DNA of 64,000 nucleotides, taken from positions 46,252,001 through 46,316,000 of the forward strand of contig CM126221.1 of NCBI GenBank assembly GCA_052327205.1. Direction: 5' to 3'. The notes under the pieces are model-generated. The model was not told where the DNA came from, did no database searches, and saw only the letters and a program-made list of their open reading frames with translations. Positions 28,081-51,245 of this stretch are shown piece after piece (the first letter of the stretch is position 1; every line of letters starts with the position of its first letter). Source of the stretch: Somniosus microcephalus. Its lineage: Eukaryota. The translations under genes were made by a program, and so were the position numbers.

Positions 28081-28218
28081 TCAGACTAGTTCCATGCTGC
28101 CCCAGGGGTAAGGTTTGCCTCCCTTGGAATCTCGACTTGCGGCTGCTTCACTTGAGTTTGTCAGTTTCAGAGCTGGAATGCTGAAGTGAAGACTGTTGCC
28201 ACTTGCCACTGAAGTGTC
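28081..28218 (-). CDS. GATA4-like: GATA4-like terminal coding exon; not in the ORF track
   Basis: Acceptor ctttgcttccag|GAC. Reads [45 protein letters not shown] with TGA at 28083-28081. ALKL and the terminal W-x-S motif resemble the GATA4 C-terminus. Confidence 0.88.
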   Translation of the reverse strand, partial: DTSVASGNSLHFSIPALKLTNSSEAAASRDSKGGKPYPWGSMELV

Positions 28219-49200: not shown

Positions 49201-51245
49201 CTAGAATAGCTTCTGTTACCTGCTCTGTCCCACAGTATGTTCTACAACTGAGGGATAACATTGTCCATTACACCACGATATCATTCATACTTATAATGTA
49301 ACAGAGCAGAGGAGTCTCCACACAGCGGGTTTAACTGTGATTCATCCACTTTTCGATCACCGAAAGGTTAACCCAAGCAGTGGAGAGACTCCCGGCCATG
49401 TTCTGTTTCAAATTGAACAGTCATCCTTTGGAGTGTAACAGTTTGATTACTTTGTCACCAAAAGGCATAAGCTTCAATTACGGACAGCATAACAGACTCG
49501 GGGTCGAAAAATCACACATCAAAATAAGGCGTGAGCTATAAAATAACGGGTGTATTAAATAAGTTCTGTTTCTGTCCTGTATTTTCTCACTGAGTGATAT
49601 GATCTGCACGGCACAGGCATCCGAACACGCGAAACTCAATAGCCTGACATACGCTGACTGACCTCCTTTGTTTTTCAGCATTTTCTGTTTTTAATACAAA
49701 ATTTCGCATTTATTAAATCTCATAAATGGAAATTCCATTTCCGCCTGTTGAAAGGACGCGATCGAACTAATTGTTCGCCAGTTCTGACGAGAGGTCTTCG
49801 ACCTGAAACGTTAACTCTGTTTCTCTCTTCACAGATGCTGCCTGGCCTGCTGAGTTTTTCCAGCGTTTTCTGTCGTGATTTCGGATTTCCAGCATCCGCA
49901 GTATTTTGCTATTGTAATTGAATCTTTAGTTCAGCTAGAGCACCATCTCACCCACATCAACACAGCCCTGAGATACGGACATTGCTGGGAATCTGTACAC
50001 ATTAGGCCTCGGTTGCGCCTCTTAGCCAGTCAGTAATCGAGATACTGGCTAGTTGTGTTCTGACCTATTCCATATAACATGAATCGCCTTATTAACACGT
50101 TTGGCCGCTTTATTAACAAAGGCTATGAGAACCGGCGCCTGGAAGAAAATATTTCTAAAATTAGACTGTCACATCATTTGTATAATTTTAATCTGTCGGT
50201 TTTTCAAAATATAGCGAGAACCCTGCTCTCTGTACTTACAACCTCACTGTCTCCCGCCACTAGTTAAACGGGGGAAGCATTAGCTGGAGTTAGTTCTTAC
50301 ACACCTTTAAAGTTGCCAGAGTTAACGATTTTAGTCTAACTCTAACCACTGGCACACTGTATCCGCATGTAATATATATCAAACCGATACTCACAAACTC
50401 TGACAATAAACAGCTCCCTTCTAGTTGTCGATTGTAACTAACTTGCACATTAAAATGTCAACATTCAGCTATATTAACGATTAGAAGCAGGTTTCTTGAT
50501 TCTTTCCCCCTGTCTTAACCTGCGAGTAATATGATCCCGTTATAAAATCTGGCACTAAGTTTTTGAAAGATGCGAGTTCAGGAAGCTCGAGTGAGCTGAT
50601 CAGCCAGTGCCCAACAAGTGAAAAGTTCCTGAAAGATTATTTTAACAAAATAAAACCACCCCTTGCGTTCAGAGCAACAGCCAGCCCCACATTCCGCTCG
50701 CCTCCCTCTTGTGTAGCTCTAACATTCTTTGATACAACATTCCCCCACATTTCCCAGCTGGGCTTCCTACCTTCGCCGTGTCTGCGAGCTGGGATCAGGC
50801 TGAAGGCAGGGTTGTCCATCGGAGCCGGGTTCCAGGCTGTGGCCGCCTCCGAGCTCATGTACTGCGGGTAGTGGTTGGGGAAGGAGCTGCTGAGAGTCCA
50901 GCTGATGCTCACTTGGTCCCGCACGGCGGCGGCGGCCGAGGAGATGGACAGCGGGCTGCTGAAGGCGGTCTCCCGGGGAGAGAGGTTGGAGACGGGCGGG
51001 CTGGAAGCGAAGGAGGAGGCAGGGTGCCGGCTACACGAGGGCTCGCTGCCCGCGACCGGCGGCGCCCAGGATGGGTGAGGGGACACCGGGCTGCTCTGCT
51101 GCGAGGAGCCGCTCTGCAGGTAAGGGAAGCCCGGGGTCACCCTGGTGGTTGGCACGTAGACGGCAGAACTGGCCGAGTGCAGGAAAGCCCCGACCGGGTC
51201 TGGGCGCGCCGTGTACGGCGGAGGGTTGGCCAAACCTTGGTACAT
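28081..51245 (-). CDS. GATA4-like: GATA4/5/6-family zinc-finger transcription factor (GATA4-like), whole spliced CDS span: 6 coding exons, 1119 nt, 372 aa
   Basis: Exons of 475+167+126+88+125+138 nt join through GT-AG introns in phases 1,0,0,1,0 with no internal stop. The protein has a GATA-N domain (MYQ...VYVPTTRV...PYLQ), two CX2CX17CX2C fingers, the basic tail [19 protein letters not shown], and the GATA4-like KTEPGL and ALKL motifs. Confidence 0.95.
28456..29035. mobile_element. Harbinger-type MITE in the last GATA intron
   Basis: GC-rich insert bounded by a 3-bp TSD AGT, with degenerate G-rich and C-rich termini. Confidence 0.65.
29161..29481. mobile_element. Tigger/pogo-like MITE remnant
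   Basis: Degenerate TIRs taCAGTAAAC...ATCCGGCACC and GGTGCCGGTAAATCGAAAGTTTCCTG. Confidence 0.5.
30357..30930. mobile_element. Harbinger-type MITE (family C)
   Basis: TIR-like ends GTGGTAGAATTTC / GAATTTCTACCCT with the canonical Harbinger TTA TSD. Confidence 0.75.
31064..31188 (-). CDS. GATA4-like: GATA4-like coding exon 5 (Ser/Thr-rich, KTEPGL motif); not in the ORF track
   Basis: Pyrimidine tract ttttctctttttgttgttcag|GC. Reads [42 protein letters not shown]. Donor CAG|GTAGGT. 125 nt, phase 1 to 0. KTEPGL matches the GATA4 IKTEPGL motif. Confidence 0.9.
33001..33088 (-). CDS. GATA4-like: GATA4-like coding exon 4 (basic region / nuclear localisation signal)
   Basis: Acceptor cacttggcag|ATT. 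Reads [29 protein letters not shown]. Donor GCAG|GTGAGC. 88 nt, ends in phase 1. Confidence 0.96.
33625..34078 (-). mobile_element. tRNA-derived DeuSINE (SacSINE1/AmnSINE1-like), full length
   Basis: tRNA-like head with B box (gtaggttcaaatccc), Deu domain gggagcttgctgtgcgcaaattggctgccgcg, tail atataaatgcaagtc. Confidence 0.88.
34211..34640 (-). mobile_element. DeuSINE, tandem second copy
   Basis: Same Deu-domain and tail motifs as the 33625-34078 copy. Confidence 0.88.
34945..35070 (-). CDS. GATA4-like: GATA4-like coding exon 3 (C-terminal zinc finger)
   Basis: Acceptor tctctgtcag|TCT. Reads [42 protein letters not shown]. Donor GGG|GTAAGT. 126 nt. Confidence 0.97.
35706..35993 (-). mobile_element. 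Tx1-clade LINE 3' end, 5'-truncated
   Basis: The minus frame reads [72 protein letters not shown]. 13-bp TSD ctgagtg(c/a)gtgta at 35693-35705 and 35994-36006. Confidence 0.75.
39493..39659 (-). CDS. GATA4-like: GATA4-like coding exon 2 (N-terminal zinc finger)
   Basis: Acceptor ttttctacctag|AA. Reads [56 protein letters not shown]. Donor CTG|GTAAGA. 167 nt. Confidence 0.97.
40905..40974. repeat. 32-bp exact tandem duplication (2.2 copies) with an internal hairpin
   Basis: Unit cgccacacggacactgtagttacagtgtgatg; contains acactgta-gt-tacagtgt. Confidence 0.9.
41228..41612 (+). mobile_element. CR1 LINE 3' fragment
   Basis: Reads [22 protein letters not shown]...TRGHQYK...[17 protein letters not shown], plus the tail gggccgaatggcctg. 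Confidence 0.9.
42311..42770 (+). mobile_element. DeuSINE, full length
   Basis: Head ctcagtgggtagcac...gggttcaagtccc, Deu domain, tail ggcgctatataaatgcaagtctttc. Confidence 0.88.
43775..44101. mobile_element. Nested Penelope pseudo-LTR remnants from two families
   Basis: Outer TSD tcaaaagaga (43765-43774 / 44102-44111); inner duplication gttatttcaaaa. The inner element contains a perfect 75-bp-arm palindrome. Confidence 0.78.
43941..44095. repeat. Perfect inverted repeat, 75-bp arms with a 5-nt spacer
   Basis: 43941-44015 is the exact reverse complement of 44021-44095. It includes the hammerhead-like core CTGAAGA-A-GGAG-CAGCG-CTCC-GAAA-GCTT. Confidence 0.92.
49063..49089 (+). repeat. Poly-G tract (G-quadruplex-capable)
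   Basis: ggggtgg followed by a run of about 20 G. Confidence 0.8.
49780..49816 (+). ncRNA. Minimal type-I hammerhead ribozyme motif in a solo Penelope pseudo-LTR (about 49778-49915)
   Basis: AGTT-CTGACGA-G-AGGTC-TTC-GACCT-GAAA-C-GTT-AACT. Confidence 0.7.
50771..51245 (-). CDS. GATA4-like: GATA4-like coding exon 1 (GATA N-terminal activation domain)
   Basis: ATG at 51245 (ccggtgATG). Reads [60 protein letters not shown]...[21 protein letters not shown]...RRHGE. Donor GAAG|GTAGGA, phase 1. Confidence 0.93.

Follow-up and report, generated by a model that had tools for sequence, protein, structure and literature searches.

The 64,000-nt window analysed here, from the genome of Somniosus microcephalus, carries a GATA-4-like gene on the minus strand. 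A first-pass annotation had proposed it as a missing fourth ohnolog of the GATA4/5/6 (GATA456) group, retained in a cartilaginous fish. Coordinates below are positions in the window unless prefixed with C, and C20 denotes the contig carrying this gene. The six coding exons total 1119 nt, corresponding to 372 amino acid residues and a stop codon. All five introns are of the GT-AG type and the only stop codon is the terminal one, which bears out the intact six-exon, 372-residue reading frame described earlier. The coding exons and the putative 3′ end are:

50771..51245, minus strand: coding exon 1 (475 nt), with the ATG at 51245 and the GATA-N transactivation region
39493..39659, minus strand: coding exon 2 (167 nt), N-terminal GATA zinc finger, followed by YNRING and KPLKRL
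34945..35070, minus strand: coding exon 3 (126 nt), C-terminal GATA zinc finger
33001..33088, minus strand: coding exon 4 (88 nt), basic tail of the C-finger with IQTRKRKPK
31064..31188, minus strand: coding exon 5 (125 nt), KTEPGL region
28081..28218, minus strand: coding exon 6 (138 nt), ending in WGSMELV and TGA
27566..27586, minus strand: candidate poly(A) signal, with AATAAA occurring twice, 494 and 509 nt past the stop codon

Exon 1 is located within a CpG island, with an observed/expected CpG ratio of 0.8 at C20:46303001. The encoded protein matched the Pfam GATA-N profile (PF05349) with an E value of 6.4e-27 and 95 bits (cut-off 20.3), the lowest score among the three genomic GATA-N matches. 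Pfam and alignment identified two GATA zinc fingers of the Cys4 type and, after them, the basic RKRKPK tail. The best PDB match of the N-finger exon was human GATA4, with 46 of 54 aligned residues identical, and the exon encoding the C-terminal finger, the main DNA-binding finger of GATA proteins, was identical to human GATA4 at 39 of 42 residues. The GATA-N region, both fingers and the basic tail, together with the C-terminal KTEPGL and ALKL motifs, are common to this gene and bony-vertebrate GATA4 (human, PDB 8VG0 and 2M9W; coelacanth, bichir and amphibian). All motifs quoted in the first-pass annotation are present in the protein. Some of the zinc-finger motifs that it took as GATA4-type, however, also occur in mollusc and nemertean GATA456 proteins and are thus ancestral.

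The chromosomal position of the gene was compared with that of other duplicated families of the GATA4/5/6 linkage group. TFAP2 and miR-124 copies were each found on contigs C7, C9, C13 and C20 (TFAP2 on C9 as a tandem pair), miR-30 copies on C7, C9 and C20 with none on C13, and SoxF copies on C7, C9 and C13. A FAM167 gene with an adjacent Src-B kinase is located on C9 (112 Mb) and on C20 (70.5 Mb). The TFAP2 gene on C20 is 1.3 Mb from the GATA-4-like gene, and the exon of the C20 Src-B kinase matched LCK best. With TFAP2, miR-124, miR-30, FAM167 and Src-B copies on C20, the GATA-4-like gene is on the fourth paralogon of this linkage group. The FAM167A and FAM167B labels of the shark copies are tentative. 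The C9 kinase was not confirmed as BLK by its best PDB match, because LYN or LCK ranked first, and its position beside the FAM167A-type and SoxF genes suggests that it is BLK. The distribution of miR-30 on C7, C9 and C20 matches the 1-alpha, 2-alpha and 2-beta pattern in the supplementary data of PMC8789304, and chicken miR-30 is given on chromosomes 2, 3 and 23 in the mapping data of PMC2777939. C9 is the chicken-chromosome-3-like paralogon and C20 the chicken-chromosome-23-like (2-beta) paralogon.

Some further features of these contigs were observed. Three miR-30 hairpins, where two are usual, are in a row at C20:5600756-5609607. Two SoxF matches, each in an open frame of 304 amino acids, are 0.47 Mb apart (C9:109846621 and 110314354) and could be a SOX7 duplication or an assembly duplicate. 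An eIF2B-family gene, possibly EIF2B4, is at C9:170190460-170196123, 1.9 Mb from the TFAP2 pair. EIF2B4 is the neighbour of miR-206/133b in fishes, and no miR-1/133 match was found on C9, the contig of this gene.

On chicken chromosome 3, published maps place BLK, GATA4, NEIL2, FDFT1 and CTSB in a row. The C20 gene is not beside BLK, NEIL2, FDFT1 or CTSB, where a GATA4 orthologue would be expected. In this shark, the BLK-position kinase is on C9 and NEIL2 on C1, and FDFT1 is together with a cathepsin gene on C3, with an EMI-domain gene ~100 kb upstream of the pair. The comparison with chicken indicates that the BLK-NEIL2-FDFT1-CTSB block is split in this shark. No GATA remnant was present in 124 kb of gap-free DNA past the BLK-position kinase. 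The next gene detected, a non-receptor tyrosine kinase gene (C9:112343772-112353170, minus strand), is tail-to-tail with this kinase, at the site of bony-vertebrate GATA4. The Cathepsin-B propeptide profile gave no genomic match, and PF00112 was used for cathepsins instead; a large tandem papain-family (cathepsin) expansion with dozens of exon matches is at C13:50.4-63.2 Mb.

The nearest 3′ coding neighbour detected was KIAA0319L, 73 kb from the stop codon, by a composition heuristic based on amino acid frequencies, combined with reading by eye, a procedure that small exons can escape. KIAA0319L is a gene of chicken chromosome 23 and human 1p34. Bony-vertebrate GATA4 is beside BLK, NEIL2 and FDFT1, whereas the shark gene is on a chromosome with KIAA0319L, LCK and FAM167B; the synteny check suggested in the first-pass annotation thus favours the missing ohnolog. 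A ZMYM-type gene was rejected as a neighbour because its C20 match is 8.4 Mb away. On its other, 5′ side, the gene has a miR-1/miR-133 cluster, so that it sits between KIAA0319L and this cluster:

C20:46459155-46459230 and C20:46478816-46478887 (L146 and L149): miR-1/miR-133 cluster, two loci 19.6 kb apart, with 64 and 75 bits

Three miR-1 and three miR-133 loci were found in the genome. Each cluster is upstream of, and divergent (head-to-head) from, one GATA456 gene, at a distance of 505 kb for GATA6, 575 kb for GATA5 and 156 kb for the C20 gene. The C20 cluster is the most divergent of the three, and its microRNA is of the miR-1 and not the miR-206 type; miR-206/133b is absent from this genome. 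The 3′ end of the C20 miR-133 is C, compared to T in the other two copies. Chicken miR-133c presumably has the same 3′ C. The DNA examined, from the gene to C20:46,456,000, contains no N; 1.7 kb just ahead of the miR-1 locus fall outside it. An Rfam search of the surrounding 244 kb returned nothing, the cluster being just beyond the scanned DNA. The probability of a random landing so near one given cluster in the same orientation is roughly 5e-5.

A similar pairing is seen in chicken, where the distance is 0.12 Mb between GATA6 and miR-1a-2, 0.11 Mb between GATA5 and miR-1a-1 and 0.26 Mb between GATA4 and miR-206 (GATA4 at 110.13 Mb and miR-206 at 110.39 Mb of chromosome 3; the coordinates come from two papers of 2009, on the assumption that both used one assembly). 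Bony-vertebrate GATA4 is therefore also by its own cluster. The fourth chicken cluster, miR-1b/133c, is mapped on chromosome 23; no description of it lying beside KIAA0319L was found in the papers searched. Supplementary file 1 of PMC8789304 lists GATA4/5/6 at 1a, 1b and 2a, with the 2b slot empty. The same supplement places elephant shark miR-1/133 at 1-alpha, 1-beta and 2-beta, with 2-alpha missing, and has all four in coelacanth; PMC4177693 likewise describes three elephant shark clusters and no miR-206/133b. These data suggest that bony-vertebrate GATA4 and the shark gene each lie by an ancestral cluster of their own, the two clusters being on sister chromosomes.

The 6.45-Gb assembly contains six two-finger GATA genes, namely the C20 gene, GATA5 on C13, GATA6 on C7 and three of GATA1/2/3 type, besides single-finger GATA relatives and one broken fragment. 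The GATA-N profile matched exactly three places in the whole assembly, and full-length coelacanth GATA4 detected no further locus at E values up to 0.1. Of the separate gata4, gata5 and gata6 loci that the first-pass annotation had suggested looking for, GATA5 and GATA6 were thus found, but canonical gata4 was not found in the assembly, and the GATA456 count is three (GATA5, GATA6 and the C20 gene). A frameshifted GATA2/3-like N-finger fragment (L007, C8:201860966-201861064) is probably a retrocopy. In elasmobranch GATA6 (P0031, P0032, P0028; C7:178557236-178557295), the C-terminus is shortened and lacks the W..L.LA-type ending seen in the other GATA5/6 proteins.

Protein cluster look-ups identified the same gene, hereafter the shark-type gene, in 18 named chondrichthyan species, including sharks, rays, skates and Callorhinchus. 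The protein from C20 is 79% identical to the chimaera copy overall and 96% identical in the fingers, a conservation that indicates a functional gene. A search with exon 1 returned 36 proteins, of which the best eight were shark-type (65–80% identity, E <1e-55), followed by bony-vertebrate GATA4 at E values of 1e-15 or weaker. In a search of 1.84 billion representative proteins, one cluster matched at 2e-205 and the next at 1.5e-110 (best 150 of 7158). Neither search, the latter within its best 150 matches, revealed a bony-vertebrate or cyclostome copy of the shark type. When residues 1–175 of newt GATA4 were used as query, no named chondrichthyan GATA4 was among the best 120 of 330 matches, which did include skate GATA6. 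The exon 1 and newt GATA4 searches rely on shared words, and absence from them is not proof. Of seven unnamed full-length matches inspected by eye, six read as teleost-like GATA4 and one as skate-type.

Databases name this gene "GATA-4-like" in 17 of the 18 species and "GATA-4" in Callorhinchus. The RefSeq/UniProt "GATA-4-like" entries (e.g., XP_041068048.1, XP_055512273.1 and XP_007902515.2) are the same gene and form one clade with support of 100/100; these names are automatic, and none among those shown marks a separate ohnolog. In six of the seven species with both sizes given, the sequence record with the shark-type gene is smaller than the GATA5 record. Among the matches listed, no shark-type copy from carpet sharks was present, though Chiloscyllium GATA5 and GATA6 were found, which could reflect loss or a limit of the search. 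The Heterodontus isoform X2 model (P0001) skips exon 5 and has an out-of-frame end.

The shark-type proteins were aligned with coelacanth, lungfish, bichir, amphibian, bird and human GATA4. The departures from GATA4 reported in the first-pass annotation are real against all of these. YNRING together with KPLKRL occurred in eight of the 403 collected proteins, all eight of them shark-type. In all aligned shark-type proteins HKM is replaced by NRI and PQR by PLK after the N-finger, and V by E in the linker, and the N-terminus is shortened and rewritten compared to GATA4. The HGIPRP motif crosses the exon 3/4 junction. The missing HGDIITA tail, which had been cited in support of a separate paralogue, was uninformative, because frog, newt and two teleost GATA4s also lack it and only the bird and turtle rows of the alignment have it.

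The shark-type protein is 62% identical to coelacanth GATA4 and 57% identical to bichir GATA4. The corresponding shark-versus-bony orthologue controls were 73–74% for GATA5 and 68–71% for GATA6, and paralogue pairs were 59–65% identical. The identity of 57–62% is therefore at the level of paralogues and below the orthologue controls. Trees were calculated under LG+G4 with no mixture model, from a chosen subset of proteins with few GATA6 rows and no amphioxus. With outgroups included, bony-vertebrate GATA4 was the nearest branch to the shark-type clade, at 80/86. The two were joined at 100/99 in a 33-row tree without outgroups, and the shark clade was supported at 100/100, with a stem of 0.47, in a tree to which five cyclostome and three protostome rows were added. 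Grouping with GATA6 was rejected (approximately unbiased test, p-AU 0.030).

Raw RNA reads from two runs with the same species label were mapped on 27000–39800, where repeats dominate the mapping. In one run (X23), the exon 4, exon 5 and exon 6 bins had a low depth of 0.37–0.95, and the first mate was on the plus strand throughout, which fits minus-strand RNA in most stranded libraries. The alignment of one contig from a related organism extends over exon 2 and ends at the 5′ boundary of this exon. The skate-type protein cluster includes full-length products of 379–380 amino acids on 1.9-kb contigs, whose size suggests that skate-type samples contain spliced mRNA of the gene.

Its location on the 2-beta chromosome, at the site of the divergent miR-1/133 cluster, leads us to conclude that the C20 gene is probably the missing second-duplication (2-beta) ohnolog of GATA4, and that the losses were reciprocal, with canonical GATA4 lost in cartilaginous fishes. 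On this reading, taken as a whole and with the same good probability, sharks have three GATA456 genes, not four. The ohnolog proposed in the first-pass annotation is thereby supported by position, but a separate gata4 beside it was not found.

Several observations weigh against this identification. In the searches made, no species was found with both the shark-type gene and GATA4. The local synteny was read in a single genome, in which a gap of 500 N lies between KIAA0319L and the GATA-4-like gene. Another 500-N gap is ~50–60 kb upstream of FDFT1 (C3:3,240,170), two gaps are in or near NEIL2, and these gaps near FDFT1 and NEIL2 could hide gata4. In chicken, miR-206 is beyond NEIL2, FDFT1 and CTSB from GATA4, so that genes lie between the two and the arrangement differs. 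The 33-row tree nested the shark clade with ray-finned fish GATA4 (87/84, stem 0.50), whereas the outgroup tree placed it as sister to a monophyletic bony GATA4 at 80/86, with a bony GATA4 stem of 0.05, as short as orthologue stems. With other branches fixed, duplication-like and speciation-like attachments differed by <1 log-likelihood unit, and neither nesting with ray-finned GATA4 (p-AU 0.14) nor grouping with GATA5 (p-AU 0.063) was rejected. As for expression, run X23 had no reads in the exon 2 and exon 3 bins, out of five exon bins tested; the second run had none in the exon bins, and no splice junction of the gene was among the junctions listed.

The tree neither proves nor refutes ohnology, because it fits an ohnolog and a fast-evolving orthologue equally, and sequence divergence and trees were consequently rejected as a deciding test. 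The case for the ohnolog therefore rests on position. Divergence alone, on which the first-pass annotation had drawn in favour of a sister paralogue, does not decide; the outgroup tree placed the gene as sister to GATA4 at 80/86 but did not separate the depth of an ohnolog from that of an orthologue. The RNA check yielded a few strand-consistent reads in three of five exon bins of one run, without a junction among those listed.

The most serious alternative is that the gene is the true GATA4 orthologue, which moved to the 2-beta chromosome in stem chondrichthyans (as a block with the microRNA cluster, by exchange or by gene conversion) and then evolved fast. The short bony GATA4 stem, the weak sister grouping, the unsettled attachment point with nesting within GATA4 not rejected, and the single GATA4-class gene per species all agree with it, and the dispersal of BLK, NEIL2 and FDFT1-CTSB over three contigs shows that the region did rearrange. 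We nevertheless consider it unlikely, since the gene would have had to reach the matching site on the matching duplicate chromosome (~5e-5 at random) or replace the native cluster. The supplement of PMC8789304 moreover assigns the third elephant shark cluster to 2-beta, with 2-alpha lost, the C20 microRNA is of miR-1 rather than miR-206 type, and identity is at paralogue level. Less probable again is that the gene is the 2-beta ohnolog and canonical gata4 still exists in sharks, unassembled in GC-rich, repetitive, gapped DNA, which would make four GATA456 genes. The FDFT1-CTSB pair is indeed near a contig end, in DNA with 52% GC and ~90% self-repetition and with the 500-N gap upstream, gaps flank NEIL2, and the newt GATA4 search covered the best 120 of 330 matches and depended on shared words. 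Against this stand the 18 named species with only the shark-type gene, the lack of any chondrichthyan canonical GATA4 above skate GATA6 in that search, the seven unnamed full-length matches (one skate-type and six teleost-like by eye), and the absence of the linked miR-206/133b here and, according to PMC4177693 and the PMC8789304 supplement, in elephant shark.

It is very improbable that only one GATA4-class gene, the 2-beta one, ever survived, being native in sharks and moved to 2-alpha beside NEIL2/FDFT1 in bony vertebrates. The tree permits orthology, BLK, NEIL2 and FDFT1-CTSB are unlinked in this shark, so that the bony block could be derived, and chicken GATA4 and miR-206 are not in the same simple arrangement; the move would, however, have to end on the single matching chromosome, no more than 0.3 Mb from the corresponding microRNA cluster. 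Hardly any credence is left for the view that the gene duplicated recently within one lineage or is decaying as a pseudogene. The long stem branch and the low read counts would suit such a copy, but the open frame, the intact splice sites, the spliced transcripts implied by the 379–380-residue products on 1.9-kb contigs, the occurrence in 18 named species and the similarity to the chimaera copy (79% overall, 96% in the fingers) do not, and the conservation across sharks, rays and chimaera largely refutes it.

If the C20 gene is the 2-beta ohnolog, the ancestral GATA456 gene would have had a miR-1/miR-133 cluster as its neighbour, and four GATA456-miR-1/133 units would have resulted from two genome duplications. 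Stem bony vertebrates would then have lost the GATA gene of the 2-beta unit and kept its microRNAs (chicken miR-1b/133c on chromosome 23; coelacanth), and stem cartilaginous fishes would have lost the 2-alpha unit, GATA4 together with miR-206/133b, and kept 2-beta. Judging by the near-identity of the C-finger, this finger and the basic tail would bind WGATAR sites. The unchanged core of the N-finger, the part with the FOG contact positions, is identical to human GATA4 and would recruit FOG-type cofactors, and the GATA-N region would activate transcription. The protein would likely cover part of the role of GATA4 in heart, gut and gonad, together with GATA5 and GATA6. The residue changes fixed beyond the N-finger and in the linker may affect how the protein binds double sites or which partners it has. 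We lean, by a small measure, towards a wider view: break-up of the 2-alpha region in the stem lineage cost all cartilaginous fishes both GATA4 and miR-206/miR-133b, and their heart, gut and gonad are built with the fourth ohnolog, a gene that first evolved rapidly (N-finger arm, linker and activation domain) and then became nearly fixed; each "Gata4" of shark and skate databases and developmental studies would thus be a different gene from mammalian GATA4.

Within the window, apart from the gene, one further reading frame was observed:

2..835, minus strand: Harbinger-type DDE_Tnp_4 transposase open reading frame, running off the window start

A Myb/SANT-like open reading frame, labelled by eye, is near it, just outside the window (C20:46250276-46251391).

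A lost GATA4 ohnolog, "GATA4-ogm", was predicted by Gillis et al. 2009 (PMC2857956), who were unable to identify its paralogon. The shark gene's tree position and chromosome fill the slot of this predicted GATA4 sister, which corresponds to the empty 2b slot of the PMC8789304 supplement. Where those sources treat the gene as lost, it is intact here, in a lineage apparently without GATA4. Nodal/Lefty (PMC12344233), Pdx2 (PMC2944030) and Kazald (PMC12955574) are likewise reported cases of a duplicate from the early genome duplications that cartilaginous fishes retain and that is mistaken for, or hidden behind, a better-known sister; the GATA case differs from them in that the loss is apparently fully reciprocal between the two lineages of jawed vertebrates, affects a regulator central to heart and endoderm, and has a counterpart in the linked microRNA cluster. 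No title or abstract opening in the literature surveyed, with subscription papers outside it, identifies the chondrichthyan gene as this ohnolog, and the main text and one supplement of an ohnolog database paper (PMC13450315) do not mention GATA. The data of Tani et al. 2013, MirGeneDB and ohnologs.com (135 shark-only ohnologs) could hold part of this already. The gene itself is annotated as "GATA-4-like" and has likely been misread as to its identity.

If the C20 gene is the 2-beta ohnolog, it would fill a stated gap in the history of the GATA family, supplying both GATA4-ogm and its paralogon, and the ancestral jawed vertebrate would have had all four GATA456 genes. It would also tie the loss of a gene to the reported lack of miR-206/133b in elephant shark, and orthology would be corrected for developmental and single-cell work on shark and skate. 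In bony vertebrates, GATA4 is an essential regulator of heart, endoderm and gonad. Its absence from cartilaginous fishes would amount to a natural replacement experiment, showing which GATA4 functions are portable to a sister ohnolog whose N-finger arm and activation domain have changed.

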